Source: Bacteroidota bacterium
GTDB taxonomy: Bacteria > Bacteroidota > Bacteroidia > JAADEI01
Assembly (NCBI GenBank): GCA_026992635.1
Contig: JALWYU010000047.1
Span: 1-59,852 of the forward strand
Direction of reading: 5' to 3'
DNA: 59,852 nucleotides
Shown here: one piece after another, positions 1-50,260 of the stretch
Numbering within the stretch: the first letter of the stretch is position 1
Layout: every line of letters begins with the position of its first letter
Program-made: the position numbers and the translations under genes
The notes under the pieces: generated by a model
Told to the model about the DNA's origin: nothing
Seen by the model: only the letters and a program-made list of their open reading frames with translations
The model's database searches: none

Positions 1-42
1 GCTATGTGGGGGTGGGGTTGGGCTAAGCGTTGCTTTTGCTAG

Positions 43-346
43 CTTGGTGTATCGTTGTATGTTCCGGATAAATTGTTTGTTCAATGTTTTCAATCGGTTG
101 CTCCAGCCAGGTTTGCTGACAGGTAGTCTGTTGCAGACGTTTCACACTTTTCCTTTCTCGGGGAGCCTCATAGGCATTGTTCATCTACCGTTGGGTTTCC
201 CGAAAGGGAATCCTGTGGTGTTTGCAGTTTGTCTGTAGCGCCTGTTCGGAGCGTGGTCTTTGGCAAGTTGTCTTTTGGACGAGAGTGGGTTCAGGTAGTG
301 GAGGGGAACTCTGTTGCCTGAGGAGGGATTATGTTTAATGCAGGGA
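43..346 (+). repeat. Copy A of a ~300-nt conserved intergenic module (candidate structured RNA or portable expression leader) upstream of cassette 1
   Basis: Aligns block by block with 1207-1511. Matching blocks are 112-137 vs 1258-1283 (24/26 identical), 174-235 vs 1359-1418, 271-304 vs 1416-1449 and 304-346 vs 1469-1511. A copy-specific insertion at about 235-270 is bounded by TTGTCT at 229-234 and 268-273. A hairpin at 193-214 is capped by GAAA. TCAGG (291-295) pairs with CCTGA (317-321). The module ends in AGGAGGG-N4-ATG, with the ATG at 331. Confidence 0.8.
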
Positions 347-780
347 CGGAAAACAGAAAGCAACCCATAAAGCTCATGGATGTGTTAATCAATATTAGCG
401 AAGGCGTATTGAAGCGAGTCTCCAGCAAATACAACGATTTACAAGAACTGGATTTGAGAGCCGATCTTTTCATGGAACTCTTCCTGAATTCTCTGTATAG
501 ATTGGTCAGCCGGTTAATCCGGAAAGTTCAACAGGGAGAGCTGAGTGATGAAGAAATGAGCGAGTTGTATGAGGCGTTTTTTCCTGAGGGCAAGCCAAAT
601 ATCCATGAGTTGATTCGTGGGCATGCGGAAGAGATTGCGAAAGTGCTTGACAAAGATACCAGGACATATAGAGAACTGAGGAGGTTATTCAGAGCGCTTC
701 ACAGGCTTGCAGGGCTGGTGGCGCTTTGGCATTACTCTAAGAAAGGAGGAAACACAGAGATTCCCTTAGAAGAGGTATGA
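331..780 (+). CDS. Hypothetical all-helical small protein, possible antitoxin-like partner of the downstream RelE-like ORF. An alternative start is ATG 376 (MDVLINI).
   Basis: 149-aa ORF whose first ATG is the conserved ATG at the end of repeat copy A. It ends 10 nt before the next ORF. I recognise no family. Confidence 0.5.
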   Translation: MFNAGTENRKQPIKLMDVLINISEGVLKRVSSKYNDLQELDLRADLFMELFLNSLYRLVSRLIRKVQQGELSDEEMSELYEAFFPEGKPNIHELIRGHAEEIAKVLDKDTRTYRELRRLFRALHRLAGLVALWHYSKKGGNTEIPLEEV

Positions 781-789
781 GTGTAAGGC

Positions 790-1077
790 ATGGAAAGATT
801 TACGTTAAAGAAAGTTGTTGTTTCTACCTCGCATGCAGAAAGGTTTTTCAAAGATCTTAAGAAGAGGAAGCCAGAGTTGTACAGGAGAATTGTTCGCAAG
901 TTCGGGTATGTGATTAAACACGTGAATAATAATACCAGGCTTCATAAGCAGGCTGATATAGTTAGAATAGGGAGCAAACAATTCTACGTTTTCAAAGTCT
1001 CCGGGATTGAGATTCTATGTGATATTGATTTTTCTGATGGAGTAATTAGAATCGTAGATGTCTATGAATTGGAATAA
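790..1077 (+). CDS. Small RelE/ParE-like (type II toxin-like) protein
   Basis: 95 aa. Size and layout resemble RelE/ParE-fold toxins: a basic N-terminal helix region (FFKDLKKRKPELYRRIVRKF) and a C-terminal beta region (YVFKVSGIEILCDIDFSDGVIRIVDV). It sits downstream of a small helical ORF. The assignment rests on pattern resemblance only. Confidence 0.45.
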   Translation: MERFTLKKVVVSTSHAERFFKDLKKRKPELYRRIVRKFGYVIKHVNNNTRLHKQADIVRIGSKQFYVFKVSGIEILCDIDFSDGVIRIVDVYELE

Positions 1078-1206
1078 ATTTTATTGAATTTTTGTATGCA
1101 ATCGATCATAAATTGCAACACATCTTGTTTTTTTTCTTTTCACTCAGAGCCCTGAGGATTGTTCACAGTTGCAGGGAATGGTTCTCGCTGCAAGCCCAAA
1201 AGAAAG

Positions 1207-1511
1207 TGTGGTATCGTGTGGATTCATCCTGGGTTATGAGAGGCTCTACAGTCCACGTTGCTAACAGGTAGCCTGTTGCAGACCTCTGACGCAAATTTTT
1301 TGGGGACTCTCAAAGAGGTCGTCTACTGGTTTCAGGCTCGCTACGGAGCATTGTTCTGGCATTGTTCATGTACCGTTGGGTTTCCTGAAGGGAATCTTGT
1401 GGTGTTTGCAGTTTGTCTTTTGGGTGCGAGTGGGTTCAGGAAGTGGAGGAGGGGGATGGTTGCAGGGCGGGAACTCGGTTGCCTGAGTAGGGATTATGTT
1501 TAATGCAGGGA
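1207..1511 (+). repeat. Copy B of the ~300-nt conserved module, upstream of cassette 2
   Basis: Same block order as copy A. A copy-specific 19-nt insertion at 1450-1468 lies inside the loop closed by TCAGG (1436-1440) and CCTGA (1482-1486). The hairpin at 1378-1397 has a UGAA loop and G-U wobbles in place of the copy A pairs. The conserved ATG at 1496 opens only a 35-codon uORF (1496-1603), which overlaps the start of the 1536 ORF. Confidence 0.8.
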
Positions 1512-1535
1512 GGGAGGGTGGAAAAATAGTTTCTG

Positions 1536-2018
1536 ATGCTTGCTTTGATGTTTTTTGCTCGGGATACGGATGCAAGGTCTATCTGTCTCAAGATTGCTGT
1601 TGACACTGATAATCTTGCGTTGATTCCAAAAGGTTTGTATCGGGACTGGAAAGAAGTTGTTTACAGGTTAGATAAGGCTGATGCAGGCATTCTGTTGGTG
1701 GTCAATCCGTATGTGCGCATTGACAAGGCGACCATCAAGGATATGCTTTATCTGATGGAACACAAAAAACCTGTATATATGATATTACCTGAGTCGGCTA
1801 AGCATCGCAAAGCATTACAGAAGGTGATTGATCTACTTCGGAAGCGCTATCCTGGATTATTCTTCACCCACTATTACACGGAAGCTAATCCGGAGGAACT
1901 TGTAAGGCAGCTTGTAAATGGCGGGGATCTACAGGAACAGCATGATAAAAAACGGCATGATGAAATATTCTGGGCAATTGTGATTCTTGTGGCGCTACTT
2001 GCTTTGTCCAGACGATGA
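1536..2018 (+). CDS. Hypothetical C-terminally membrane-anchored protein, with possibly a TIR-like/DUF1863-like or deoxyribosyltransferase-like alpha/beta domain
   Basis: 160 aa with a hydrophobic C-terminal helix (IFWAIVILVALLALS). The segment ADAGILLVVNPYVRIDKATIKDMLYLMEHKKPVYMILPES resembles the conserved core of TIR-like/DUF1863 proteins, but weakly. It overlaps the PIN gene by 4 nt. Confidence 0.5.
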   Translation: MLALMFFARDTDARSICLKIAVDTDNLALIPKGLYRDWKEVVYRLDKADAGILLVVNPYVRIDKATIKDMLYLMEHKKPVYMILPESAKHRKALQKVIDLLRKRYPGLFFTHYYTEANPEELVRQLVNGGDLQEQHDKKRHDEIFWAIVILVALLALSRR

Positions 2019-2506
2019 GAGGGCAAATTATCCTTATTTTGGATACCGACGTGTTGATTGATATAGAAATAGAAAAGACGAAACGGAAAAAAGGTCGTGA
2101 TTCAGCAAAAGAGCTCATAAGAATTTTGATTAAAGAGGTTCAGCCTATAGCTATTTGGATACCAAAGGAGGTACAGAGGGAGTTTTACTATAATGTGCCT
2201 CAGGAAGCCGAAAGGATTATGGAGATGTTCATCGCGGTGGCAAGAGCAGTGGATGTTTTTGTTTCAAGATGCCCTATTAGTGATAGAAACTTGAGGACAG
2301 GTATAGCCCGGGAGTACAGGTGGCTTGGTCGTGGTGAGCTGGATGCGATTCATCAAGCCAGGCTGCTTGAAAGAGTTTCCAAATACAAGGATGTGAAAGG
2401 CAAAGTTTTATCAGGCGATAAAGATTTGCTAAATATCAATGAATTTGTCGACTATATAATTGATTGGTCAAATTTCCGCGAAAGGTATGACTTTTTGCTG
2501 GGTTGA
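2015..2506 (+). CDS. PIN-domain nuclease-like protein
   Basis: 163 aa. Acidic residues sit in PIN-like positions: N-terminal ILDTDVLID, central GELDAI and C-terminal SGDKDLL. It has an ATGA-type 4-nt overlap with the upstream ORF. Confidence 0.65.
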   Translation: MRGQIILILDTDVLIDIEIEKTKRKKGRDSAKELIRILIKEVQPIAIWIPKEVQREFYYNVPQEAERIMEMFIAVARAVDVFVSRCPISDRNLRTGIAREYRWLGRGELDAIHQARLLERVSKYKDVKGKVLSGDKDLLNINEFVDYIIDWSNFRERYDFLLG

Positions 2507-2593
2507 AGAGGAATACTTTCGTGTTTCAACGGTTTGCCCATCGGATCATACTGACCAGTAGTTTGAAATTCAGTGAGCATGGTCGTTTTTTTC

Positions 2594-2990
2594 TCACGGC
2601 GTTAGATTCATTAGAGTTTTTTTGAGTTTTTTGAGGAAGGATTCGGTGTGCTGGATCATTTCCTGTGCGCCTTTGAGTCCTGCTTTTAAGATTCCGACCC
2701 TTGTGATGTCCAAGAAATCGCACTCTATATGGAGGATGTCGTAAGCGCTATGTCTGAGCGGGCTGTAGCTTTTAGCGTAGCAGGAAAGCAATTCGTCGTA
2801 TCGTTTCGGCGTTGGGCTGAACCCGTTGCTTCCCACCTTTCTTCAGCTTGTATCTTCGTTTGATGGGTTCTCCGAATGCTCTGGCGATGGCTTCTGCTGC
2901 CGCCAGTTCAACTGCTAAGTAGGCGAGACCGGCGGCTTCGCTGACTTTTTTGGGGTTTTCGGTGCCAGTCTGGAGGCACGCGGTGTTTAA
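2594..2990 (-). pseudogene. Possible frameshifted small gene (helical, vaguely HEPN-like) between cassette 2 and the tRNA
   Basis: Two consecutive minus-strand reading frames are offset by one nt near 2836-2850. The first reads ...KVSEAAGLAYLAVELAAAEAIARAFGEPIKRRYKLKK, and the second reads GSNGFSPTPKRYDELLSCYAKSYSPLRHSAYDILH.... No family could be assigned. Confidence 0.3.
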
Positions 2991-3104
2991 ACTGTTGCGT
3001 GTACATTGATTATGGGTGGTGGGCAGGACAGGGCGAATTCCCGGACTATGCAGGTGTTCTGCCAGACAGGCGGTGTTGTAAACAGAAAGGAGCGGGGAGG
3101 GATG

Positions 3105-3177
3105 TGGGCCCGCCAGGATTCGAACCTGGGACCGATGGATTATGAGTCCACCGCTCTAACCGCTGAGCTACGGGCCC
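3105..3177 (-). tRNA. tRNA with CAU anticodon (elongator Met, or Ile2 if lysidine-modified). CCA is not encoded.
   Basis: The reverse complement reads GGGCCCGTAGCTCAGCGGTTAGAGCGGTGGACTCATAATCCATCGGTCCCAGGTTCGAATCCTGGCGGGCCCA. It has a 7-bp acceptor stem (GGGCCCG/CGGGCCC), a D arm (GCTC..GAGC), an anticodon loop (CTCATAA) and a T arm (CCAGG TTCGAAT CCTGG). Confidence 0.9.
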
Positions 3178-3213
3178 CCCTCTTTTTTCATCTGAAGAGA
3201 AACGTCTGGGTGT

Positions 3214-4002
3214 GTGGGAAAAGTTCCCGGCATGGTGGAAGGTAGGTTTTCCCGGGATCAGGAGGGAGCCTGGGTTCGTCGTGTGATTGCGCTTACTGAT
3301 CATACGTCTTTGCAGATGCGGGATGCGTACCCGCAGATTCAGCGGCATATAGCGTTGATGCGGGGTTTACGTGTGCGGTGGGGCGTAGTGCCTGCTGCTT
3401 TTTGTACGTATGGTCGGCATTTGCCTTATCTGGATGGGGTACGTCGTCTGGGTGTGCGTGTAGCGGTGGTGGTGGGTTTTCCCGATGGTCAGCTGCCAAT
3501 GAGTGCATATTTGGCTGAGGTGCAGTGGTCGGTCAGGTGGCGTGTCCACGAGATTGACGTGGTGCCGTGGTGGGGTGCGTGGTGGTCGGGGCACACTACA
3601 CAGGTTTTGCAGGAGTTACGGTGGCTGGTGGCGCAAGCGCCGTCAGCGGTGTGGAAAGTGATTCTGGAGGTGAATTTGTGGTCGTCGCCCGCAGAATTGT
3701 ACTTTGCCTGTCTGGAAATTTTGCATGAGGTGGATGTGGCGTTTTTGAAGACGTCCACAGGACGGTATGGTGCGCCGACGGTGGATCGTGTTCGTCCTGT
3801 GCTGGAAGCGATTCGGGCGTACTGGCGTGCGACGGGCAAGCGGGTAGGCGTGAAGATTTCAGGGGGGATTCGGACGCTGGCGGATGCGCGCAGGTGGCTG
3901 GACTTAGTTCAGGAGGTTCTGGGTGAGGAGTGGCTTACACCTGAGTATGTGCGGTTGGGTGCGAGTCGTTTGTTGTTTTCGCTGGATTCTCATGCAGGAT
4001 AG
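3214..4002 (+). CDS. deoC: Deoxyribose-phosphate aldolase (DeoC family)
   Basis: Contains IALTDHTSL, VVVGFPDG, the lysine motif FLKTSTGRYGAPT, and VGVKISGGIRT. An alternative start is ATG 3232. Confidence 0.8.
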   Translation: MGKVPGMVEGRFSRDQEGAWVRRVIALTDHTSLQMRDAYPQIQRHIALMRGLRVRWGVVPAAFCTYGRHLPYLDGVRRLGVRVAVVVGFPDGQLPMSAYLAEVQWSVRWRVHEIDVVPWWGAWWSGHTTQVLQELRWLVAQAPSAVWKVILEVNLWSSPAELYFACLEILHEVDVAFLKTSTGRYGAPTVDRVRPVLEAIRAYWRATGKRVGVKISGGIRTLADARRWLDLVQEVLGEEWLTPEYVRLGASRLLFSLDSHAG

Positions 4003-4039
4003 GATGGGATGATTGGTGCAGTTTATTTTGGCTTGGTTT

Positions 4040-6172
4040 TCACCAGGCAAGGAGTTCTTCTATGAGTTGAGGCAGGCGGTTCCAGGGCAGGTAGGCGTCT
4101 TCTAAGGGGGCACTGAAGGGGATGGGTGTGTTGGCGGAGGCGACTCGTCGGATAGGGGCATCCAGGTAGGTGAACAGTTCTTCGGCGATGAATGCACTCC
4201 ATTCGGCGCCCACGCCAAACGTCAGGGAGGGCTCGTAGACAATGAGGACTTTTCCGGTTTTCTGGACGCTGGCACGGATGGTGTTGTGGTCGTAGGGCAG
4301 GAGTGTGCGCAGGTCAATGATTTCGGCGGACACACCCATTTTCTCTGTGATCTCCAGGCATTTGTGCACACCCCATCCGTAGGTGAGGATGGTGAGGTCT
4401 GAGCCTTCGCGGGCAATGCGCGCTTTTCCGATGGGGACGAGATAGGGTTCTTCCGGGACGGGTCCACGCACCGATCGGTACAGGTATTTGTGCTCAAAGT
4501 AGAGGACGGGATTGGGATCGGCAAGTGCACTGAGCAGTAGTCCTTTGGCGTCAAAGGGTGTGGCGGGGTAGACGACTTTCAATCCGGGCACCTGCGTAAA
4601 CCAACCTTCTAAGGAGGCGGAGTGGAAGGGTCCGCCCCGTACACCTGCGCCTGAGGGCATGCGAATGACGACGGGTGCGGGTTGTCGCCATCGCCACCAG
4701 ATTTTCGCCAGGTTCATAGTGATCTGGGTCATGGCGTAGGAGACGAAGTCGCTGAATTGCATTTCCACGATGGCGGGTCGCCCGCCAATTGCCAAGCCCA
4801 GGGCAACGCCCACGATTCCGGATTCACACAGAGGTGTGTTTCGGACACGGTCTTTGCCAAACTGGTGGACGAACCCTTTGGTGACTTTGAATACGCCGCC
4901 GTGCTCAGCGATGTCCTGTCCCATCAGGATGAGTCGTTCGTCCAGTTCCATTGCCTGGCGGAGGGCTTCGTGGATGGCGTCCACATAGCGGAGTGTCCGT
5001 GAATTCTTAGTGGTGGGTGGTTCTGTATAAGTGGGCAGCTGGTGGAGGGGTGTGGGGAATGTATTGGGCGGTGCCCAGACACTTTGCCAGTGTTTTTTCT
5101 GTGGGTTGGGATCGGGCGCGTTGAGTGCTTCGTCTAAGGCGGTGCGGACCTGTTGTTCCAGCTGGTGGCGAATTTCGCTAATCGTCTGTGGGTCAATGAG
5201 TTTTTCTTTGGTGAGGAAGGCGATGAAGGTCTGGACGGGGTCGCGTTGTGCCCACCAGTTGCGCAGGGGTTGTGGTACGTAGTCGGTGCCTGAGGCTTCT
5301 TCGTGGCCGCGCATTCGGAAGGTGACGCATTCCAGGACGAAGGGTTTGCCCTCCTGGAGAATTGTTTGTCGGGCATTGTGGACTGCTTGCATGACTGCCA
5401 GCACGTTATTGCCGTCTATGGATTGGAAGGGGATACCATAGGCGCGGGCACGTTCCGCGAAATAGGTGAGGGCGTATTGTTCGTAGGTGGGTGTAGAGAT
5501 GGCGTAGGCATTGTTTTCAATGATGAAGAGGACGGGCAGTCGCCAGACTGAGGCGATATTGAGTGCTTCGTGGAAGTCGCCTTCACTGGTGGCGCCTTCT
5601 CCGGTGAAGGCAACGACGATTTCGTGCTGGTTGGAGAGGCGCAGTGCGAGAGCGAGTCCGTCGGCAACTGGAAGGTTGGATGAGACGTGTGAGATCATGC
5701 CCACGATCCGGTAGTCGCGCAGTCCGAAGTGGAAGGATCGTTCGCGTCCTTGCGTAAATCCGGTTTCTTTGCCGAGGAGCTGGGCAAAGAGTGGAGTGAG
5801 GGGTACGCCTCTGGTGGTGAAGACGCCCAAGTTGCGGTGCATGGTGAAGAGCCAGACGGAGTTGGGTACGGCTAAGGTGGCTCCGACGGAGATGGCTTCC
5901 TGTCCCCAGGCTGAAAACCATTTGGCAATTTGTCCTTTGCGCAGCGCCAGGAGCATGCGTTCTTCAATGAGTCTGGGCAGGAGGAGGGCTTTCAGGATCC
6001 GGAGCAGTTGCGTGCGATAGGTGTTTATGTAGGGGCGGTAGTCAATGGGCTGGCGTGCGATGGGTGGGACCTGTTTCCACCAGGTTTCAGAGGGTTGGGA
6101 CTGGGGTTGCGTTTGGGTCTGGGTCTGGGCTGGGGAGCTGGTGGTGAGGACGGTCGTGGTGTTTTCGCTCAT
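4040..6172 (-). CDS. Fused 2-oxoacid dehydrogenase E1 component (alpha plus beta subunits in one 710-aa chain)
   Basis: The N-terminal half has a TPP-binding alpha-subunit pattern (GEGATSEGDFHEALNIA, IENNAYAIST). The C-terminal half is beta-subunit-like (MGQDIAEHGGVFKVTKGF, NTPLCESGIVG). The N terminus carries a low-complexity TQTQTQPQSQP tract. Confidence 0.9.
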   Translation of the reverse strand: MSENTTTVLTTSSPAQTQTQTQPQSQPSETWWKQVPPIARQPIDYRPYINTYRTQLLRILKALLLPRLIEERMLLALRKGQIAKWFSAWGQEAISVGATLAVPNSVWLFTMHRNLGVFTTRGVPLTPLFAQLLGKETGFTQGRERSFHFGLRDYRIVGMISHVSSNLPVADGLALALRLSNQHEIVVAFTGEGATSEGDFHEALNIASVWRLPVLFIIENNAYAISTPTYEQYALTYFAERARAYGIPFQSIDGNNVLAVMQAVHNARQTILQEGKPFVLECVTFRMRGHEEASGTDYVPQPLRNWWAQRDPVQTFIAFLTKEKLIDPQTISEIRHQLEQQVRTALDEALNAPDPNPQKKHWQSVWAPPNTFPTPLHQLPTYTEPPTTKNSRTLRYVDAIHEALRQAMELDERLILMGQDIAEHGGVFKVTKGFVHQFGKDRVRNTPLCESGIVGVALGLAIGGRPAIVEMQFSDFVSYAMTQITMNLAKIWWRWRQPAPVVIRMPSGAGVRGGPFHSASLEGWFTQVPGLKVVYPATPFDAKGLLLSALADPNPVLYFEHKYLYRSVRGPVPEEPYLVPIGKARIAREGSDLTILTYGWGVHKCLEITEKMGVSAEIIDLRTLLPYDHNTIRASVQKTGKVLIVYEPSLTFGVGAEWSAFIAEELFTYLDAPIRRVASANTPIPFSAPLEDAYLPWNRLPQLIEELLAW

Positions 6173-6249
6173 TCTGCCGGGGGATTTTCTGGTGGGAAGG
6201 AACCTTTTGCCGGGAAAGAAAGTTTCTCTTTCCGAAAAAAGGCGTATTC

Positions 6250-6507
6250 ATGCCGAATACGAAGAGTGCGAAGCGGGCGTTGCGCAAGAGTTTGCGTCGT
6301 CGTGAGCGGAATTTGCGGATGATCAATCGTGCCAAGAAGCTTTTGAAGGCGTTATTGAAGACGACGGATGTAGAGGAGGCACGTGCGCTGTTGCCGCGGG
6401 TTTATTCTGCGCTGGATAAATTGGCGAAGCGCAATACGTTTCATCCCAATAAGGTGGCGCGGTTGAAACGGCGTGCTATTGCTCATGTCCATCGGCTGGA
6501 GCGATGA
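6250..6507 (+). CDS. rpsT: 30S ribosomal protein S20
   Basis: 85 aa, very basic, with MPNTKSAKRALRKSLRRRERN at the N terminus and LDKLAKRNTFHPNKVARLK. Confidence 0.9.
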   Translation: MPNTKSAKRALRKSLRRRERNLRMINRAKKLLKALLKTTDVEEARALLPRVYSALDKLAKRNTFHPNKVARLKRRAIAHVHRLER

Positions 6508-7552
6508 TCCGGTTTTAGGGGAGGGGTTTGGAGAGGTGGATTCGAGGCTTGCAGACGCATTGGGTGATCGTTCTGAAGATTCTGGCAGGGGTTTGTCTCA
6601 GCCGGTTGCTAAGGAGGAGTTTTTGCGTCGTCATCCGTGGGCGCGGAAAGGCGTTCAGGTTCTGGATAGTTCGGATTGGTGGCTTGTGGTGAATAAGCCG
6701 CCGGGCTGGCTGACGATTCCCGATCGGTGGGTGCCCACGCATCCCAACCTGTATCAGTGGTTGAAGAAGCAGTATGGGGAGGAGGTGTATGTGGTGCATC
6801 GTCTGGACTGGGAGGTGAGTGGCATCAACTTGTTTGCGCGCACGCGTGCGGTTCATCGGCTGTGGAATATTGCGTTTCAGTATCGGTGTGTACGGAAGGT
6901 GTACTTGGCGCTGGTGGAGGGGACGCCTGAGGAACCCGAGGGCAAAATAGAATTGCGGTTGACGGCGCTCTCCAAGCGGAAGCGGAATGTGTACAAGGTA
7001 GGTGGGAAGGAGGGGAAGCCGGCAGTTACGTATTACCGGTTGTTGCGCAGGTATCTGGGTTATAGTTTGTTGCAGGTGGAGCCGTTGACGGGTCGTACGC
7101 ATCAGATTCGCGTGCATTTGAAGGCGATTGGTTTGCCAGTAGTGGGCGATCGGACCTATGGAGGGCATGTGATTTTTGCGCGTCGGCTCAAGCCTGGTCG
7201 GTGGTATACCAAGCGGCGTGGGATAGAGGCTGAAGAAGAGAAGCCGCTGATAGAACGGGCTTTTTTGCATGCGTGGCTGGTGGGTGTACCTGCTCCGGAT
7301 GATCCTGATTATGAGCGGATGGTGTGGTGGCAGGCGCCTTTGTTCAAGGATCTGAAAGTGACTTTGCGTTATCTGGAGCGGTATCGGCGTATAGAGGAAG
7401 GATCAGGGTGTGGGCAGGGCGTGTTGCGGGTTGGCGGGGATTTAGAGGATGTGGACGGGCTTATAGAGGGATTGGCGGATTGGGTTCGTGCGCATCCTCT
7501 GTACGAATTGCGCTCCTTGAAACGCGTCTTGAAAGATGAAGGTGCTGGCTGA
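6473..7552 (+). CDS. RluA/RluD-family pseudouridine synthase
   Basis: Carries the catalytic motif HRLDWEVSGINLFART, and also TGRTHQIRVHL. The start is uncertain because the ORF overlaps the end of rpsT. Confidence 0.85.
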   Translation: MLLLMSIGWSDDPVLGEGFGEVDSRLADALGDRSEDSGRGLSQPVAKEEFLRRHPWARKGVQVLDSSDWWLVVNKPPGWLTIPDRWVPTHPNLYQWLKKQYGEEVYVVHRLDWEVSGINLFARTRAVHRLWNIAFQYRCVRKVYLALVEGTPEEPEGKIELRLTALSKRKRNVYKVGGKEGKPAVTYYRLLRRYLGYSLLQVEPLTGRTHQIRVHLKAIGLPVVGDRTYGGHVIFARRLKPGRWYTKRRGIEAEEEKPLIERAFLHAWLVGVPAPDDPDYERMVWWQAPLFKDLKVTLRYLERYRRIEEGSGCGQGVLRVGGDLEDVDGLIEGLADWVRAHPLYELRSLKRVLKDEGAG

Positions 7553-8423
7553 GCGGGATATTTTGCTTGAGCGTTCAGGTAGTGAAGGAGGGGGTCGTGT
7601 GGCGTTTCTGGTGGATGTCTGGTGGCGGGTTTCGTCGCCGCACTGGGGGTATTTGTTTTTCTTTCATGGTTTTAAGGCGTTTAAGGATTGGGGTCCGTGG
7701 TGGGTGGTTGCCCGTCGGTTTGCCGAGTCGGGTTGGATCACCATTGTTCCCTCTTTTTCGTACAATGGGACGTTGCCGCGGGCGCCCCGTGCGTTCGTTG
7801 CGCCGGATCGGTTTCGCCGGTGGACGTTCTCTGAGGATTTGCGGGATGTGGCGCGCCTGATAGGCTGGCTGGAGGAAAAGACGTTTGTGGTGGATGTTCG
7901 TCCTGAGCGGGATCGGTTTGTGTTTGTGGGGCACAGTCGTGGAGGGCTTGTGGCGTTACAGAGTGCGTGGAAGTGGCGGGACAGGGTGTGTGCGGTTGTG
8001 ACGTGGGGGAGTCCGCATCAACCTTTCAGTACTTTTTCGGAGGAGGAGTTAAAGCGTTGGGCGTCGGAAGGCACGGTTTGGATTGAGAATCGTCGGACGG
8101 GTGAGCGTCTGCCCTATGACTGGGTTGTCTATGAGGATTTTTTGAAGCATCGTGCTGAGCAGGATCCGGCGTTGTTTGGCAAAACGCTCAGTGTTCCTGT
8201 GTTGATTGTGCATGGTTCGGAGGATGAGACGGTTCCGGTTGCGCATGCACGTTGGTTGAAGGGGTATTTCCCGCGTGCGGAGTTGCGGATTGTGGAGGGT
8301 GCAGGGCATACTTTTGGCGGTGGGCATCCCTGGGAAGAGGAGACATTGCCTGCACATCTGGAGCAGGTTGTTGATCATACGCTTGCGTTTTTGTCGGAGC
8401 ATACTGGGGTTCAGGGCAATTAG
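7536..8423 (+). CDS. Alpha/beta-fold hydrolase
   Basis: Has the nucleophile elbow GHSRGG, an acid region HGSEDETVP, and a His region GAGHTF. Confidence 0.7.
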   Translation: MKVLAERDILLERSGSEGGGRVAFLVDVWWRVSSPHWGYLFFFHGFKAFKDWGPWWVVARRFAESGWITIVPSFSYNGTLPRAPRAFVAPDRFRRWTFSEDLRDVARLIGWLEEKTFVVDVRPERDRFVFVGHSRGGLVALQSAWKWRDRVCAVVTWGSPHQPFSTFSEEELKRWASEGTVWIENRRTGERLPYDWVVYEDFLKHRAEQDPALFGKTLSVPVLIVHGSEDETVPVAHARWLKGYFPRAELRIVEGAGHTFGGGHPWEEETLPAHLEQVVDHTLAFLSEHTGVQGN

Positions 8424-8426
8424 GGA

Positions 8427-9128
8427 GTGATGCGTTGGGTTGTTTTGTGGTTGGGCTGGTTGGGTTTGGCGTGTATTCTGTATTCGGTGGTGGTGGGTTT
8501 GCAGATACGGGTTCCGGAGTTGCCCGTGTTGCATCAGTCCATTCGTGTGTTGTTTTTTCATGTGCCCATGTGGTTTGTGATGTTGCTGTTGTTGCTGGAG
8601 GCGTTTTTGAGGAGTGCGTGGTACTGGTGGCGTTCTGAAGCGATGGATCCGTTTGTGTATGTTGATCGGTTGCACACGTTGCTGGTGGTGGCGTTGTTGT
8701 CTGGGTGTTTGGGTATGGTGACGGGGATGGTTTGGGCGAAGCATACCTGGGGTGCGTGGTGGCATGGTGATCCCAAGCAGAATGCTTCGTTGATTGCGTT
8801 GTTTTTGATTGGTGGTTACTTTTTGCTGGAGCGGTTGTTGCCTGTGTATGTTCGTGCGCGGTTGATGAGCATATATGTGGTTGTGGTTCAGTTGGCGGTG
8901 GTGTGGCTGGTGCTGGTGTTGCCGCGGCTGGTTCCGTCGTTGCATCCTGGTGCGGGTGGCAATCCTGCGTTCAGTGCGTATGATAGTGACAAGACGTTGC
9001 GTATGGTGTTTTATCCGGCGGTGGTGGGCTGGTGGCTGGTGGCTCGCGTGTTTGCACACTATTTGTTTGTGTTTCGGCAACGGGTAGCGGAACCGGAACA
9101 GGTGGGTGGAAAGATAGGGAAGGGATAA
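8427..9128 (+). CDS. CcmC/CcsA-family heme-handling membrane protein (cytochrome c biogenesis)
   Basis: 233 aa and polytopic. Carries the Trp-rich signature WGAWWHGDPKQNASL. Confidence 0.65.
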   Translation: MMRWVVLWLGWLGLACILYSVVVGLQIRVPELPVLHQSIRVLFFHVPMWFVMLLLLLEAFLRSAWYWWRSEAMDPFVYVDRLHTLLVVALLSGCLGMVTGMVWAKHTWGAWWHGDPKQNASLIALFLIGGYFLLERLLPVYVRARLMSIYVVVVQLAVVWLVLVLPRLVPSLHPGAGGNPAFSAYDSDKTLRMVFYPAVVGWWLVARVFAHYLFVFRQRVAEPEQVGGKIGKG

Positions 9129-9172
9129 GCGTTGGGGTTTTGTGCGCGCGTATGTGTGTGTTGCGTAAGATT

Positions 9173-10039
9173 TCAGGCTGAGGAGGGGTTGTGGGTTTCG
9201 GAAAAGAGTTCGGGTTTGAGGAGTTCCAGGAGGTCGGGCGAGATGCCCATAGCGGTGAATCCGCCGTCGTGGTGGATGGTTTGCATGGTGAGTTTGGCAG
9301 CCAGGTCGGAAAAGAGGAGGACGCACAGGTTGGCGCAGTCTTGAGCGGAGGCGTTTCCGAGTGGTGAGAGGCGTTCGGCGATAGTGAAGAATTCGCGGAA
9401 GCCCGGTACGCTGCTGCCGGCGGTGGTCCAGGTTGGGGACTGGTTGATGGCTAAGATGCGTACTTGTTTCCGTTTTCCGTACCAGTAACCGAAGTTTCGT
9501 ACTATGCTTTCCAAGAGGGCTTTGGCGTCTGCCATATCGTTGTATTTGGGGAAGACGCGTTGTGCGGCGATGTAGGTGAGTGTGAGGACGGCGGCGCCTT
9601 CGGCGAGTGCGTCCAGTTGCCAGGCGTGTTGAAGCAGTCTGTGCAGGGAGATGGCGGAGATTTCCAGGGTTTTCTGGTAGAAGTTGTAGTCAATTTGTGG
9701 GTATTCGCGTTTTTTTCGGATGTTCATGGACATGGCGACGGAGTGGAGGATCCCGTTGAGTGGTCCGCGCGCGTGTTCCATAGCTTGCTGGAGGAGGTTG
9801 TGGACGTCTTCATCGCGAGTCAGGTCTGCGGGGATGAAGGGTGCGTTGAGTTGTTCTGCCAGTTGACGGACTTTTCCCATACGTGCGGCAAGAGCGGTGT
9901 TGGTGAGGATGATGCGTGCTCCCCAGTGGTGTGCGGTTTTGGCGACGTGCCAGGCAATGGATTGTTCGTCTAAAGCCCCTGTAATCAAGAGGGTTTTTCC
10001 AGCGAGCAGGGGTGTTGTGGGTTGGGTTTGGTCTGTCAT
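9173..10039 (-). CDS. fabI: Enoyl-ACP reductase (FabI-type SDR)
   Basis: The N terminus reads GKTLLITGALDEQSIAWHVAK. The protein is SDR-sized (288 aa), and the region YIAAQRVFPKYNDMADAKA has the Y-x6-K spacing typical of FabI. Confidence 0.85.
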   Translation of the reverse strand: MTDQTQPTTPLLAGKTLLITGALDEQSIAWHVAKTAHHWGARIILTNTALAARMGKVRQLAEQLNAPFIPADLTRDEDVHNLLQQAMEHARGPLNGILHSVAMSMNIRKKREYPQIDYNFYQKTLEISAISLHRLLQHAWQLDALAEGAAVLTLTYIAAQRVFPKYNDMADAKALLESIVRNFGYWYGKRKQVRILAINQSPTWTTAGSSVPGFREFFTIAERLSPLGNASAQDCANLCVLLFSDLAAKLTMQTIHHDGGFTAMGISPDLLELLKPELFSETHNPSSA

Positions 10040-10149
10040 GGTGCCGGTTTTTTCTGGTAAGGTACTAAGGGTGGTGCTTTTTGTTGGCTTTTGAAAATGC
10101 TTTTGTGATTACCTTTTGAGAGAAGTTGGCGAGTGGGAAAGCACGGAGG

Positions 10150-11016
10150 ATGGCTTGGTTTCGCCGATTGAAGGAGCGGTTGTTTCCTGCGGAGGCGGAG
10201 AAGCGGGATGTACCAGAGGGTATATGGCATCGTTGTCCTAATTGTAAAGCGATTGTTGCGCAGACGGAATTGGAAGAAAATCTTTATGTTTGTCCGCACT
10301 GTGATTATCATTTTCGGATGACGCCCCGTCAGTATTTTGCGTTGTTGTTTGATGGTGGGGAGTGGGAGGAGCGGTTTGAGGAGTTGCGTTCTATAGATTT
10401 TCTGGAGTTTCGTGATCGGAAGACGTATCATTCCCGGTTGAAGCAGATGCTGGAGAAGACGGATGTGACGGAGGCGATTGTAGTAGGTGTGGGGAAGGTG
10501 GAGGGTCGTCCGTTAGTGGTGGCGGCGATGGATTTTCGGTTCATTGGCGGGTCGATGGGTTCTGTGGTGGGTGAGCGGTTTGCGCGTGCGGTAGAGTTTG
10601 CGATTGCGGAGCGTATTCCGTTGTTGAGTATTACGCAGAGTGGGGGTGCTCGGATGATGGAGTCGGCGTTTTCGCTGATGCAAATGGCGAAGACGGCGGC
10701 GGTTCTCACGCAGATGGAAGTGCATCGTTTGCCCTATTGGGTGTTGTTGACGGATCCGACGACGGGTGGGGTTACTGCCAGTTTTGGCATGCTGGGCGAT
10801 GTGATGCTTGCGGAGCCGGGTGCGTTGATCGGTTTTGCGGGTCCGCGTGTGATTCGTGAGACGATCAAGCGGGATTTACCCCCGGGCTTTCAGCGCAGTG
10901 AATTTCAGCTGGAGCATGGGTTTGTGGATCGGATTGTTCATCGGAGGGAGTTGCGTGCGACGATTGTTCAGCTTTATCGGTTGTTTATGGAGGGGAAGCG
11001 GTATGGGGGAGGGTAG
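10150..11016 (+). CDS. accD: Acetyl-CoA carboxylase carboxyltransferase beta subunit
   Basis: Has MAWFRRLKERLF at the N terminus, the Zn-ribbon CPNCKAIV...CPHCDYHF, and GGSMGSVVGE and GGARMMES. The ORF track starts at TTG 10126, but ATG 10150 matches the usual N terminus. Confidence 0.9.
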   Translation: MAWFRRLKERLFPAEAEKRDVPEGIWHRCPNCKAIVAQTELEENLYVCPHCDYHFRMTPRQYFALLFDGGEWEERFEELRSIDFLEFRDRKTYHSRLKQMLEKTDVTEAIVVGVGKVEGRPLVVAAMDFRFIGGSMGSVVGERFARAVEFAIAERIPLLSITQSGGARMMESAFSLMQMAKTAAVLTQMEVHRLPYWVLLTDPTTGGVTASFGMLGDVMLAEPGALIGFAGPRVIRETIKRDLPPGFQRSEFQLEHGFVDRIVHRRELRATIVQLYRLFMEGKRYGGG

Positions 11017-11028
11017 TGGGGATGTGGA

Positions 11029-13425
11029 GTGATGGGTGGGTTCAGTCGGGCAGGCTTGTATATGTTGATGTTTCTGGTGTGGTGGTTGGGTGAGGGGCTG
11101 GGCACGGATGTGGGAAATGGGGATTCGGTGGGGTTGTTTCGGTGGGATACGACTATGCTGAGTGGAAAGATTGTTTTTGAAGGGCGGCGCCTGGTGCTGG
11201 ATGCGGGGGGTCGTCGGCTTGTATTGATTGGTGAGGCGCGTGTTGAGTATGGTTCTATGACCTTAGAGGCGCCGGTCATTGTTCTGGACTGGTCTGCGCA
11301 GGTGGTGGTTGCGCGCAGGGATTCGGGTGGTTTGGTTCGGTTTCGTGAAGGGCAGTATGAATTTTTGCTGGACAGTTTGAAGTATCAGTTGCGTACGGGG
11401 AGTGCGGTGGCTTATCAGGTTCGGACGACGGCATTGCTGGAGGAGAGTCAGCTGGCGGGGGGTCGCATCAAGCGGAAGTTTGAGCGGCAAAGTCGTGGGG
11501 ATACGTTGCGGGAGGTGTATTATGTTTCGTCGGGTGTGTTTACGACGTGTGATACGTTTCCTCCGCATTACTATGTGTATGTTCGTCGTGGTAAATGGGT
11601 GCCGAATCGGCTGGTGGTGTCGGGTTCGGGCTGGTTGACGGTGTCTGGCGAGCCTTTACCTGTTTGGTTGCCCTTTTTTTTGTTTCCTGTGACGAAGCAG
11701 GGACAGTCGGGGGTGATATTGCCTACGGTGGGTGAGTCGCCGGTTCAGGGGTTTGCGCTTCGGAATGGGGGTTATTATCTGGCGTTGAATGATTATGTGC
11801 ATTTTGCGTTGACGGGGGATTTATTCACGTCGGGGACGTATCGTGTATCGCTGGAGAGCTGGTTTCGTCGTCGGTATTTGCTGGAGGGTGAGATGCGTCT
11901 GACGGTTGCGCGTACGTACACGGGCTTGCCATTATTTCCTGAGACGCGGGAGTATCGGGATGTGGGTGTGTTCATGCGGTTTCGGTTAGGGGGTGCGTAT
12001 TTACCGAATTTGTCTGTGCATGGTCGTGTTGAGTTGACGACGCGGACGTTCTGGCAGAATACCATGTATGAGCCGGATTTGTTTTTGCGGAATAATGTGG
12101 CGTCGGGGGTTCAGCTGGCGTATCGGTTTGGGAGTGTGGCGACGGTTCAGGCTGGGGTTACGCATCGGATGAATGCGCGCAGTGGTCTGGTGTATTTGGG
12201 TTTGCCGGATGTTCAGTGGAGTGTGTATCGGCGCAGTTTGTTGCGTCGTCGTGGTGTTCGTGTTTGGTGGTCGGTGCATTCGCGTTTTTTGCATTTGTGG
12301 CGGACGACGGACAGTGTGTTTTTCTCGCGGTGGTTACCGATTTATGGTGAGAGGGGTTCGGGGGGCGTAAGCGGTTCTGGTTCGCCAGTGGATTTTCGGG
12401 TTTGGGAGTGGCGGACGACGGTTCCCATGGAGGTGTTTGTTCGCGTATTGCGGTATGTGCAGGTTCGTGGTGGGTGGACGCATCGGTGGAGTGTATTGAG
12501 TCATGGGTTGCGTTTACGGGATTCGGTTAGGGGTGTGCCAGATACGGTGTATGCGCCCTGGGGTTTGTATCAGGGTGAGGCGCGTTTGTCGGTGCACACG
12601 GCGGTGTATGGTTTGTGGCGGATAGGTAGTCGTGGCAGGTTGCGCCATGTGGTTCAGCCGGGTGTGGAGTGGGTTTGGCGTCCTGTGGGGTATCCGGCGT
12701 TGCCCACGTATGTGTGGGTGGATTCACTGGGTATCAGGCGTGAGTGGATGCGTGCGGGGTTATCTCCGCTGGGTGTGGAGGTTCTGGTTCCGGTGCATCG
12801 TGTGCAGTTTGTGGTGCGCCAGCGTGTAGAGGTGAAGAGGCGGAGGGAAGGGGGTGTAAAGAAGGAGGTCTGGGTTCCGGAGTGGCGGGTAGTGGTGCCG
12901 TGGTGGGTTGGGGATTCGGTTCCGTTTCGTGAGGTTCGTCAGACGGTTCGTGTTCAGCCTGGAGGGTTACCCGTGTATGTTCAGGCGGTGGTGGTGCATA
13001 TTCCTGAGGTGTATCCGCGGTTTTTGCCTGTGTCGGGTTTACGGTTGTCGGCGGGGTATAGTGGTGTGCTGGGCGAGTCGGTGTTTGGTGGGCTGGAAGG
13101 GTTTGGCGGTGCGCCGTGGGTATCTTTGGGGTTCAATGTTCAGTATGGGGAGGGAGTGGTTCGTCCTGTGGTGGAGGGGAGTTTGCGGTGGCGGGTTACG
13201 CCGCGGTGGCAGGTTCAGGTGTATTCGGGGTATGATTTTGCGGGTGCGCGTATTTCGTATACGAGTGTTCGGTTGTTGCGGGATTTGCACTGTTGGGAGC
13301 TGGCGTTAGAGTGGTATCCGGTGGGCTGGCGTCGTGGGTATTTTTTGCGTTTATCGCCGAAGGCTTCGTTTCTCCGTTCGGTGAAGATTCAGCATCGTCG
13401 TGAGTGGTTTGAGCAGTGGCGGTAG
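11029..13425 (+). CDS. LptD/OstA-like outer-membrane LPS-assembly protein (large beta-barrel)
   Basis: 798 aa. It has an N-terminal hydrophobic signal and an OstA-like segment (GEARVEYGSMTLEAPVIVLDW), followed by a long beta-rich aromatic-alternating C-terminal region. Trp/Gly/Val/Arg content is extreme. Confidence 0.55.
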   Translation: MMGGFSRAGLYMLMFLVWWLGEGLGTDVGNGDSVGLFRWDTTMLSGKIVFEGRRLVLDAGGRRLVLIGEARVEYGSMTLEAPVIVLDWSAQVVVARRDSGGLVRFREGQYEFLLDSLKYQLRTGSAVAYQVRTTALLEESQLAGGRIKRKFERQSRGDTLREVYYVSSGVFTTCDTFPPHYYVYVRRGKWVPNRLVVSGSGWLTVSGEPLPVWLPFFLFPVTKQGQSGVILPTVGESPVQGFALRNGGYYLALNDYVHFALTGDLFTSGTYRVSLESWFRRRYLLEGEMRLTVARTYTGLPLFPETREYRDVGVFMRFRLGGAYLPNLSVHGRVELTTRTFWQNTMYEPDLFLRNNVASGVQLAYRFGSVATVQAGVTHRMNARSGLVYLGLPDVQWSVYRRSLLRRRGVRVWWSVHSRFLHLWRTTDSVFFSRWLPIYGERGSGGVSGSGSPVDFRVWEWRTTVPMEVFVRVLRYVQVRGGWTHRWSVLSHGLRLRDSVRGVPDTVYAPWGLYQGEARLSVHTAVYGLWRIGSRGRLRHVVQPGVEWVWRPVGYPALPTYVWVDSLGIRREWMRAGLSPLGVEVLVPVHRVQFVVRQRVEVKRRREGGVKKEVWVPEWRVVVPWWVGDSVPFREVRQTVRVQPGGLPVYVQAVVVHIPEVYPRFLPVSGLRLSAGYSGVLGESVFGGLEGFGGAPWVSLGFNVQYGEGVVRPVVEGSLRWRVTPRWQVQVYSGYDFAGARISYTSVRLLRDLHCWELALEWYPVGWRRGYFLRLSPKASFLRSVKIQHRREWFEQWR

Positions 13426-13433
13426 CCGTGGGG

Positions 13434-13868
13434 TTAGTGGTTTCCGAAGGTTTGCTGTATCCAGTGGTGGATTTGGTCTCGGACTTTTCGGAAGTTGTGG
13501 ATTTGTTCGTGTGGTGTGGCTGGTTGGGCAGTGGGGTCTGGGAAGTGCTGATGGAGGTGGTGTTTGCCGTTGGGAAAGTAGGGGCATTCTTCACGGGCAC
13601 GGTCGCACACGGTGATGACATAGTCAAAGGAGATGTCCTGCAATTCGGATATGCTGTGTGTTTGCGGGTTGGGTATGTGGATACCGATTTCCTGGAGGAC
13701 CTGGATTGTGAGAGGGTGTACAGAAGTAGGGTGTGTGCCAGCGCTGTAGGCTTCGTAGTGGTTTGGGAAGAGGTGGTTGAGCAGTGCGGCGGCGATTTGG
13801 GATCGGGCTGAGTTGTGTGTGCAGATGAAGAGGACTTTTTTCTTTTTGGGCTGCTGGGGTTTGGTCAT
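13434..13868 (-). CDS. arsC: Arsenate reductase / low-molecular-weight phosphatase family (thioredoxin-coupled ArsC type)
   Basis: Has the P-loop VLFICTHNSARSQ (CX5R-S) and VITVCDRAREECP, where the Cys pair is spaced as in pI258-type ArsC. The likely start is ATG 13868-13866 (MTKPQQPKKKK), which overlaps the TGA of the upstream SNF2 gene. Confidence 0.8.
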   Translation of the reverse strand: MTKPQQPKKKKVLFICTHNSARSQIAAALLNHLFPNHYEAYSAGTHPTSVHPLTIQVLQEIGIHIPNPQTHSISELQDISFDYVITVCDRAREECPYFPNGKHHLHQHFPDPTAQPATPHEQIHNFRKVRDQIHHWIQQTFGNH

Positions 13869-16800: not shown

Positions 16801-17470
16801 TTTTCTGGAGGCGTTCAGAGATGGTTCGGTGAATCGTCTGTCTTAACCTGATGGGTTTGTTCAAAAGTGATGCGGATATTGTGATGAATGTGGGGTGGGC
16901 GGTCCACAGGTAGGCGTTGAGTAATCGGCTGGCGGAAGGGAGGTCTGTCTGGTGTTGGGGGGGTGCGATGACCAGTGCCCAGATTGTTGCGTCCTTAGTG
17001 GTTTGCTGCTGTTTTTTGGCTTTTTTTCGTTGGGAAGCTTTGGCGGGTTTGGTGGTTTGTTTGTTTTTGGGTTTTTCGCCGCCGTTGAGTCGCTGTACGA
17101 AGGCATGCCATTGGCTTGGAGAAGTATTCCAGAGTGTGTGGATTTTGTCGCGGAGTGCGGCGAGGCGCATTGCGCAAGCCACCTCGTGATAGCAGAGCAG
17201 GTTGTGGGTAGCCTGTGGACAGTTGCATTGTAAGGAGAGCAGATAGTGGTTGTTGTTGGTTTTTACGATGATGCCATGAATGACAAAGTCTTCATTGAAG
17301 GGGTAGTACGATTGGGCGTAGGCGACGAACTCTAATTTCTGTTTGGAGCGCTGTCGGAATTTGCCGAAGCGAATGGTTTTGGGGGATACGGAAGTGAGCA
17401 CATTGCGGAAATTGTCTTTACCCACATGTGTCTGGAGTTCGTGGAGGTCCAGTGGGCATTTGTAGATCAT
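13865..17470 (-). CDS. SNF2-family helicase with N-terminal SWIM zinc finger
   Basis: 1201 aa. The SWIM motif is CNCPQATHNLLCYHEVAC. Helicase motifs are LADDMGLGKT, DESSAM (DExx), and the C-terminal LKAGGFGLNLTAADYVIILDPWWNPAIERQAADRTHRVGQ. Confidence 0.9.
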   Translation of the reverse strand: MIYKCPLDLHELQTHVGKDNFRNVLTSVSPKTIRFGKFRQRSKQKLEFVAYAQSYYPFNEDFVIHGIIVKTNNNHYLLSLQCNCPQATHNLLCYHEVACAMRLAALRDKIHTLWNTSPSQWHAFVQRLNGGEKPKNKQTTKPAKASQRKKAKKQQQTTKDATIWALVIAPPQHQTDLPSASRLLNAYLWTAHPTFITISASLLNKPIRLRQTIHRTISERLQKNELPKTLFPPDQNTLANIHKPQRFFQTVLQFFQEHNLSEEKGIPRTEFAHFLYTLLNAMTSNDWIPVFLHKQLLPVTEEETKHHRLLIFQPFHDFFLFSQIIAVHLGKDPNGKHFFTFERLLLKISSAFLSKILHPLSSHPKGYTAAYLLSESRLHPHRLIVAHPIFGNKTSNPLTQHLGKIIPEDEFINIIRTLGQKKRDIDNITFMNPDTNLIFKVIESETPTARLYLELHNNKLHARLRFQYGPVEVDFQNQNQYADIIKHNDRFYIVIRDLSAEKRIYRKLTSNKETGLTYARRDRNYLLPVRSSIPPITFLEKHIPQIAKLGIDVFCPEDLIQQLNPTPPQVHITLSKPGSGIDWLQLAGTITWQLPNNQTASIDLIDALNQWKALKDKPEKYLQLADGSRKTIHPTLQQLLEQLELLIQNGNRIHQHNTPLLELLHKASDLVTLHWKTQTTTYLARYEQLTKIQQLPHYPLPKHFHGTLRPYQKEGYYWLRLLYDHQLGGILADDMGLGKTVQVLAFLASLREEKHPEHPDLIVVPRSLVHQWQAEAHHFTPHLRITLYDGSSRQSLNLQNTDLIITTYGLVRNDIHHLKQHTFHCLILDESSAMVKQWTSKTAQALLQINAQFKLALTGTPIENSLNDLWTQLSLLMPGILGTHRVFSKLFLSAEQKIKKGTATRHTTRTLETLRHYIQPLILRRTKDMVLKELPPRTEHTILCTLPPDHQTFYQKTFHHFQQTVRHLLQTKNLHEARMQILNALLRLRQAAIHPKLLDDTYSGASAKFDQLHILLPDIIAEGHKVLIFSSFLKTLELLTTLLKEHGWNYVTLTGQSTPKQRQQAIHTFTTDPNTPLFLLTLKAGGFGLNLTAADYVIILDPWWNPAIERQAADRTHRVGQQKPVFIYRLIAKDTIEEQVLQLQQRKQHLFNLLITERPSSRTWQSLSTDHLHELINLLLSTPQQNTTEKQEENQPELAKP

Positions 17471-17599
17471 GGCAGGCGATTCTTGTTGTTGCCGGGTCAG
17501 TCTGTTTTTTCAGATAAGTTAAAGCCGGAGGGAGAGGGAACTTTTATTGTGATCCAAGGTCTTTTTGAAAAAGAGAGCCGGTTTAAAAATGGAGGAGTC

Positions 17600-17782: not shown

Positions 17783-17801
17783 GGGTTTTTGTGGGCTGGG
17801 T

Positions 17802-17891
17802 TGGCGTGGGCGTTGGGCGCTGGCTTGCAGGGAGTTGTGGCGCCGTACGGCGCCACAACTCCCTGCAAGCCAGCGCCCAACGCCCACGCCA
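17802..17891. repeat. Perfect 90-bp palindrome (two 45-nt arms with no spacer)
   Basis: I paired every position i with 35693-i from 17802 to 17891, and all 45 pairs are Watson-Crick. The centre is GGCGCCGT|ACGGCGCC. The outer arms contain tandem GGCGT(T)G units. Confidence 0.95.
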
Positions 17892-50257: not shown

Positions 50258-50260
50258 GGT

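Follow-up and report, generated by a model that had tools for sequence, protein, structure and literature searches.

Promoter-early stem-loops (PeSLs) of T4-type phages, with ~50 copies per genome, are laid out as a stop codon, an AT-rich stretch, -35 and -10 boxes, a stem-loop with G-T pairs, a Shine-Dalgarno (SD) site and a start codon; they are located upstream of ORFans in plastic regions, where shuffling takes place by homologous recombination (Arbiol et al. 2010, PMC2839356; Comeau et al. 2014, PMC4122927). A comparable arrangement was analyzed at the start of contig JALWYU010000047.1 of a Bacteroidota bacterium (assembly GCA_026992635.1), whose complete 59,852 nucleotides (nt) are referred to as the window. 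Here, a non-coding module of ~250-300 nt is present in two collinear copies, A and B, with cores at 113-346 and 1258-1511, each on the same strand as the two-gene cassette which follows it. According to the best explanation, to which we assign an even chance, the module is a duplicated promoter/leader/start segment, used again in front of exchangeable accessory operons, and belongs to an island which was acquired horizontally and is located next to a tRNA-Met gene.

Judged by sequence features only, the module resembles PeSLs in several respects. It follows a stop codon, carries -35/-10-like boxes, G-T stem-loops and an SD-like site with a start codon, is placed ahead of ORFans or accessory genes in a plastic region, and could provide the homology for shuffling. 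The 3’ edge typical of PeSLs, where an SD site is combined with the downstream gene’s start codon, is found in copy A, whereas in copy B the site is degenerate and the start codon is out of frame. Further differences concern size and setting. The module unit has ~290-430 nt and three hairpins and looks much longer than the compact promoter-plus-stem-loop of PeSLs. There are two (perhaps three) copies, which are located in a bacterial chromosomal island by housekeeping genes and not in a phage and show no observable recombination products. The homology between the copies reaches five codons into the coding sequence, and no sequence similarity to PeSLs exists. Because host, size, copy number and sequence differ, the module is an analogue of PeSLs and not a member.

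Three other systems are similar in part. Sedentary chromosomal integrons (attC, Vibrio VCRs) share the small tandem cassettes, often of toxin-antitoxin type, the similar repeats and the location in a region which breaks assemblies. However, the module is found 5’ of its cassette and not 3’, shows neither an R’’/R’ core nor an attC imperfect palindrome, is several times longer than the attC range scanned, and supplies a promoter-like site and a start codon; intI is not in view, and the contig ends at window position 1 in three assemblies. Phage morons and minimal mobile elements are cassettes exchanged by homologous recombination of conserved flanks. As in those, accessory genes with their own expression signals are found between conserved sequences, and a relative of cassette B is present in a phage-like contig, but the flanks of morons are neighboring genes or short promoter/terminator signals and not a repeated leader of 250-300 nt. 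The phase-variable vsp, vlp and vsa loci of Mycoplasma contain paralogous surface lipoprotein genes with common signal peptides and conserved 5’ regions. The likeness consists of a very similar upstream region, start codon and first codons on otherwise divergent adjacent genes. In contrast to those loci, the downstream genes at the present locus are unrelated toxin-antitoxin-like pairs of cytoplasmic or membrane proteins, and the module contains no invertible or slippage element.

Homology between the module copies

A repeat finder returned four collinear pairs: 113-145/1258-1290 (85%), 173-234/1358-1418 (88-91%), 260-304/1405-1449 (84%) and 304-350/1469-1515 (94%). In a blastn search of the window against itself, 173-350 was aligned to 1358-1515 with E = 4e-24, and each of three block patterns had exactly two matches in 59.8 kb, compared to 0.00-0.01 expected. 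A previous sequence-only reading of the locus had described two copies with four blocks in the same order, which is confirmed far beyond chance. The extents given there (43-346 and 1207-1511) were too wide; the repeat is real, but 43-112 and 1207-1257 have a weak likeness, and strong homology is seen only from ~113 and ~1258 on. The module has no more than these two copies in the window.

For the cores, a gap-aware global alignment gave 169 identical positions in 188 ungapped columns (90%) and six indels; copy B is longer by 3, 43 and 20 nt at three of them, and copy A by 6, 1 and 39 nt at the others. The mismatches are unclustered: the four longest runs of identity sum to 79, compared to 88 ± 11 in shuffles. 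As the mismatches are evenly spread, the ‘blocks’ are to be seen as alignable stretches between indels and not as islands of constraint.

The segment specific to copy A (235-273, 39 nt) is bounded by a TTGTCT direct repeat at 229-234 and 268-273, as proposed before. Copy B has a specific 43-nt segment at about 1315-1357 and a further insertion in the loop of the stem 290-303/309-322 (A coordinates); the position of the latter within the loop had been recognized, but it comprises 20 nt (1450-1469) instead of the 19 nt reported. On the + strand, core A contains the hairpins H1 and H2, the 39-nt segment, hairpin H3, GAGGAGGG (320-327), ATG 331 and five common codons (MFNAG). Core B, on the same strand, contains H1, the 43-nt segment, H2, H3 with the 20-nt loop insertion, GAGTAGGG (1485-1492), ATG 1496 and the same five codons. 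At its 3’ end, the homology stops inside a coding frame, five codons past the ATG. The module itself is non-coding, because the indels of 43, 20 and 1 nt disrupt every frame and no homologue was found in a protein search with its pseudo-open reading frames.

The spacer between the two units (1078-1257, + strand) contains the promoter-like element of unit B and a T-run (1124-1140), and it may include a decayed third module copy. This possible partial copy (~1112-1222) is collinear with 130-218 of copy A, and the alignment of the spacer to copy A has p ~0.003 with permissive gap costs and ~0.03 with strict ones. Words resembling the fourth block (CCTGAGGA and TGCAGGGA at 1151-1177) were rejected as indicators, their frequency being about that expected by chance for 7-8-mers (estimated, k = 7 dot-plot). 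After the last cassette (2507-3103), no block of the module was above chance in strict per-block alignments, and the permissive-gap alignment of the whole module was marginal (39/1000). A decayed copy 3’ of cassette B picked by eye (2990-3035) was rejected with the same permissive value, since it is not significant under strict scoring.

Promoter-like elements and start codons

A promoter-like element is located on the + strand at the beginning of each unit, TTGGTG-17-GATAAAT at 44-75 in unit A and TTGAAT-17-CATAAAT at 1084-1115 in unit B. Both follow the pattern TTG-N21-ATAAATTG, which has these two sites only in 59.8 kb compared to 0.03 expected, the pattern being defined post hoc. The elements start 2 nt and 7 nt after the stop codons TAG (40-42) and TAA (1075-1077), respectively. 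Neither site was called by a generic promoter scan. Transcription would start ~7 nt past ATAAAT, i.e., near 80 and near 1120.

According to the sequence-only reading, both copies end in AGGAGGG-N4-ATG. A GGAGG-like site and an ATG are present in both, with GAGGAGGG-N3-ATG in copy A, but the site of copy B is degenerate and reads GAGTAGGG, not AGGAGGG (G to T at 1488). The frames were described correctly: ATG 331 is in frame with the open reading frame (ORF) of 149 amino acids (aa), and ATG 1496 opens a 35-codon ORF (1496-1603, + strand), which is out of frame and overlaps the start of the 160-aa gene. In alignments, the homologues match the 160-aa protein from their first residue on; thus, ATG 1536 is the real start. 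The ATG of copy A would start the 149-aa protein, adding a disordered N-terminus of 13-15 residues, and the ATG of copy B would open the overlapping upstream ORF only.

At host gene starts, GGAG, GAGG or AGGA was found upstream in 4/38 cases (crude starts), and many A/C-rich leaders end in CCATG. The host appears to be poor in SD sites, and in this the module is unlike the host.

Hairpins and RNA folding

H1 is located at about 113-136 in copy A and at about 1258-1281 in copy B. H2, a hairpin of 13 bp (186-220 in A, 1371-1404 in B), is followed by UUUGCAGUUUGUCU and was scored as terminator-like in both copies, with an interrupted U-tract; H2 would attenuate transcription. Its inner stem at 193-213, with a CGAAA loop, is retained at 1378-1397, where the loop reads UGAA and one G-C pair is replaced by G-U, and the earlier observation of a hairpin retained with a UGAA loop therefore stands. 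H3 extends over 290-322 in A and 1435-1487 in B.

Five substitutions are found in the stems. Two in H1 and one in H2 are one-sided and keep the pairing, whereas in H3, which precedes the ATG, both substitutions disrupt pairs of copy B. No compensatory change was found among the properly aligned helices of the two copies; two pairs reported as ‘compensatory’ by RNAalifold were disregarded, since they belong to a misaligned stretch. The whole fold of copy A reaches z = -3.1 compared to shuffled sequence, whereas copy B (z = +1.0) folds no better than shuffled sequence. Folding of the minus strands of both copies is not significant, and local hairpins reach z = -1 to -2 only. The view that the differences between the copies look RNA-like is not supported, given the even mismatches, the lack of compensation, three pairs kept compared to two broken, and the z value of copy B. 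The evidence for a structured RNA is weak.

The + strand of the window shows an unusually strong asymmetry of composition at 6000-18000 and 42000-57000, with a GC skew of up to +0.46 and an AT skew of down to -0.38. Both skews are independent of gene orientation and ~0 between 21 and 39 kb. As the + strand of the whole window is strongly G+T-rich, G-U-rich hairpins are expected and come cheaply.

Search for further copies and known element families

The exact block patterns had no match in public genome, metagenome or viral contig collections, and nothing was found by blastn of the module against plasmids and phages. With an nhmmer profile of the module, no other copy was detected in the window or in any of the related loci fetched, and a covariance model of H2 detected none in the window or in 23 of the related loci. 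The gathering scan of Rfam 15 returned the tRNA-Met alone and no match for the module. When 1-3300 was scanned at E ≤ 10, no match was located within the conserved module; the nearest was a chance-level snoRNA (E = 9.4, 1501-1624) touching just the last bases of copy B. In the sequence-only reading, the module could not be matched to an RNA family either, which is borne out by the Rfam scan.

A miniature inverted-repeat transposable element (MITE) or insertion sequence (IS) was rejected, because terminal inverted repeats are not common to the copies, target duplications are missing, and both copies have the same orientation and gene-relative position. Hence, the module corresponds neither to a known IS or MITE nor to an Rfam family. 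For an integron attC site, no RYYYAAC...GTTRRRY pair was found within 50-160 nt on either strand of 1-3103, and the genes called over the adjoining 12 kb of the window include no recombinase or integrase. A duplication of the tRNA 3’ end, as for att sites, was not found either.

In a type III toxin-antitoxin system, the toxin gene is preceded by a terminator and by the RNA antitoxin, a tandem array of repeats of about 36 nt. This candidate was rejected, as no tandem repeat was found in 1-3100 using Tandem Repeats Finder (TRF). In the template repeat/variable repeat (TR/VR) pair of a diversity-generating retroelement, mismatches are confined to adenines of one copy and a reverse transcriptase is encoded nearby. 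Just 2/20 mismatches involve A in copy A, by which this candidate was rejected as well, and the genes called over the adjoining 12 kb do not include a reverse transcriptase.

Cassette genes

Cassettes A and B are unrelated to each other in protein and DNA, in agreement with the sequence-only reading. The first gene of cassette A (331-780, + strand) starts at the module ATG and encodes a 149-aa ORFan predicted to form five helices. No homologue was found among 5.8 billion proteins, and no Pfam match was obtained. A single-sequence AlphaFold2 (AF2) model of this protein has a pLDDT of 69.7; residues 1-13, which are derived from the module, are disordered, and the first helix extends from residue 15, beside the internal Met16. 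A fold search with the model gave no match. The second gene (790-1077, + strand) encodes a 95-aa, weakly RelE/ParE-like protein, a candidate toxin. The matches to Pfam ParE_toxin (E = 0.023, residues 17-91) and to a RelE-like PHROG (E = 0.008, residues 15-91) are below the curated cut-offs.

The first gene of cassette B (1536-2018, + strand) encodes an alpha/beta protein of 160 aa which has a membrane helix at its C-terminus (secondary structure from a single-sequence AF2 model). It belongs to a small uncharacterized family, with 13 relatives among 1.84 billion representatives and no Pfam or PDB match. The second gene (2015-2506, + strand), overlapping the first by 4 nt, encodes a 163-aa PIN-like protein, a candidate nuclease or toxin. 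Weak matches to PIN_8 (E = 0.055), PIN_5 (E = 0.096) and TIGR03875 were obtained at an N-terminal ILILDTD motif; those to PIN_8 and PIN_5 are below the curated cut-offs.

The pair of cassette B is a conserved unit which was also found in other contexts, one of them phage-like and two chromosomal. In locus L057 (4001-5929; GCA_015490475.1, WFXT01000008.1), a phage-like contig, two tandem paralogous pairs are present, with DUF5675, Peptidase_M23 and HTH_3 as neighbors; the 163-aa protein is 34% identical to the partner gene there. In locus L060 (972-1951), the pair is located beside a cytochrome-c assembly gene. The module is not present upstream of the cassette-B relatives in any of these loci; hence, cassette B is portable without it. 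Apart from the 149-aa ORFan, the cassette proteins form singleton 90% clusters, and no relatives of the cassette proteins were found in viral contigs. A PADLOC search of the cassettes gave no match. Gene order and the 4-nt overlap agree with type II toxin-antitoxin systems, but the toxin-domain matches are weak; the pair of cassette B is a candidate for an uncharacterized toxin-antitoxin or defense pair.

The island at tRNA-Met

The GC content is 36-50% in 1-2900 and 56-59% beyond, a drop of 10-20 points. In the closest relative (GCA_027048825.1, locus L055), the DeoC-like protein is 82% identical and the order tRNA-Met, deoC, E1 dehydrogenase is kept, with Usp and PNP genes on the other side of the tRNA. 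Nucleotide homology to this locus begins exactly at the tRNA 3’ end, at window position 3102. The tRNA-Met gene (CAU, 3104-3177, - strand) thereby marks with its 3’ end the right boundary of a variable island (1-3101), which is considered foreign-looking because of its low GC content, the stop of homology at the tRNA and the contrast in SD usage. The surroundings expected for interchangeable cassettes are thus in place, i.e., a low-GC, lineage-specific island at tRNA-Met and a cassette-B pair which occurs in other contexts. The organism is regarded as an uncultured, Ignavibacteria-like bacterium. For the E1 dehydrogenase, the best identity to species representatives or JGI contigs is 55-61%, and those relatives do not have the module. 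Within the island, a probable fragment of a DUF5618-like gene is located at 2594-2836 (- strand); it corresponds to no more than the C-terminal half of the Pfam profile, with E = 0.001 to 5e-5. Locus L055 has an additional gene for a 508-aa protein of lectin/DUF2341 type between deoC and the E1 dehydrogenase (2972-4498), of which nothing is found at window 4002-4040.

No difference was found between three contigs (NCBI, ENA and Logan) over the compared lengths, and their starts coincide to ± 1 base. The coincident starts would fit a junction of several left-hand contexts with one right-hand sequence, and such a junction would mean strain-variable content or further repeats. The window starts with a G-run-rich stretch (1-42, GTGGGGGTGGGGTTGGG), in which the last 13 codons of a frame-1 ORF end at TAG 40-42; an upstream cassette gene may end there.

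Other repeats in the window

Two near-perfect palindromic elements of ~125 nt, which are 83% alike and unrelated to the module, are located at 17784-17908 and 31611-31739. The first contains a perfect palindrome of 90 nt (17802-17891); the other copy is 95% self-complementary. The pentanucleotide microsatellites (GTAGA)12 and (AGAGA)9 are found on the + strand at 20857-21226 and 29429-29792 (also 31344-31455). They adjoin a 364-nt stretch which is 85% identical between the two sites, with a weaker third copy. This stretch looks like the conserved 5’/N-terminal part of paralogous minus-strand genes (19476-20852 and 27982-29304; 32% aa identity elsewhere). Slipped-strand phase variation is possible at the microsatellites. 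The minus-strand gene 27982-29304 contains tandem repeats of 156 nt (6.6 copies, 75% matches) and repeats of 18 nt at 28004-29214. Between the ORFs 21848-22696 (-) and 23576-24136 (+), repeats with a period of 21 nt (C-rich and A-T-tract units) extend over 22890-23125.

Weighing of the explanations

The sequence-only reading had regarded the module as a portable leader, ncRNA or recombination scaffold which delivers expression signals to its cassettes. While the supposedly RNA-like differences gave no support, the leader as such fits, because each copy has a promoter-like element, conserved hairpins, a ribosome-binding-like site, and an ATG with five codons. A duplicated, reused leader is also favored by the unrelated cassettes, the separate portability of cassette B, the island context, the coincident contig starts, the possible third copy and the GGAGG site, which is atypical of the host. 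Each segment would then comprise a promoter, a long hairpin-bearing 5’ leader, the ribosome-binding-like site, the start codon and five codons of an ancestral gene. The copies would arise by recombination which adds or replaces module-headed units, the module being the homology. If a circular molecule of module plus cassette entered a resident module by a single crossover, precisely the direct repeats seen here would result, and more units or variants would lie beyond the contig start. Several observations weigh against a reused leader. The divergence of 10% is even and transitions and transversions are found at 9:11, which gives no indication of selective constraint. The module has two copies only, with no third in any collection searched. 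In copy B, the ribosome-binding-like site is degraded, two pairs of H3 are broken and the ATG is out of frame; hence, copy B may no longer use the translation signals of the module. The promoter motif was set after viewing the sequences. Finally, the host rarely uses SD sites, so that GGAGG may not act as one.

The main rival is a neutral relic, in which an operon upstream region with the first codons was duplicated, the coding part was replaced, and the copies are decaying, at most one of them still acting as a leader. We consider this a serious but less probable explanation. The unconstrained pattern of mismatches is what it would predict, as is the number of indels (six beside about 20 substitutions); short direct repeats flank several of the indels and suggest slippage. 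The decay of the site, H3 and frame in copy B and its poor folding agree with it, and the spacer may hold a further decayed copy. Moreover, homology ending five codons into the coding sequence is expected of illegitimate replacement and not of a precise cassette boundary. On the other hand, the promoter-like motif, H1 and H2 are intact in both copies, both have the same position relative to a two-gene cassette, and the coincidence of the contig breaks hints at additional copies or variants. The intact hairpins would also be accounted for by a structured functional RNA, either a cis riboregulator (an attenuator or riboswitch-like leader) or a small RNA ending at H2, which controls the toxin-like cassettes. 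Copy A folds better than shuffles, H1 and H2 exist in both copies with three one-sided, pair-preserving changes, two large indels fall in loops or between helices, and H2 with its U-rich tail resembles an intrinsic terminator or attenuator. Nevertheless, a structured RNA is unlikely: Rfam gave no match at E ≤ 10, compensatory changes are absent and both H3 substitutions break pairs, the fold of copy B and the local hairpins do not stand out, G-U hairpins are cheap on this G+T-rich strand, and neither the covariance model nor nhmmer found another copy in the window or the related loci searched.

If the module were, or contained, a site used by a cassette-capture system for site-specific recombination, comparable to an integron attC or a different att site, this would explain why tandem cassettes of toxin-antitoxin type with similar repeats resemble chromosomal integron arrays, and why contigs break at the edge of the array. 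The 8-nt word TGCAGGGA at 339-346, 1170-1177 and 1504-1511 might be taken for such a site, but short words of this kind have about chance frequency (estimate). Further, an attC core pair is missing, the module is located 5’ of each cassette with none after the last, its ~250-300 nt are well beyond the range of 50-160 nt scanned, and no integrase is encoded in the adjoining 12 kb, which makes this explanation improbable. Least of all do we expect a MITE, IS end or other transposable repeat. The module is repeated, non-coding and about as long as a MITE, and assemblies break in this region, which is suggestive of one, but the copies have no common terminal inverted repeats and no target duplications, their 3’ edge is in a coding frame, and only two exist in 59.8 kb, whose orientation and placement relative to the genes are alike.

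Biological significance

With two copies, an ordinary duplicated regulatory region in a genomic island is plausible, and the practical value of the locus is that of a pointer to an assembly gap which probably hides more variable content. There is also a small chance that a larger array, cut by the contig break, continues beyond the two copies seen, and that in this array the ~300-nt module captures, expresses and reshuffles toxin-antitoxin or defense cassettes beside tRNA-Met. If this is true, the array would be a chromosomal, homology-driven analogue of integrons and PeSLs in an uncultured Ignavibacteria-like lineage, with the leader RNA possibly acting as a common regulator. If the module is a reusable platform for expression and recombination, the logic of the ‘mobile regulatory cassette’ of T4-type phages would also organize toxin-antitoxin or defense genes on bacterial chromosomes, and the module would be a sequence handle for hidden cassette arrays in poorly sampled lineages.

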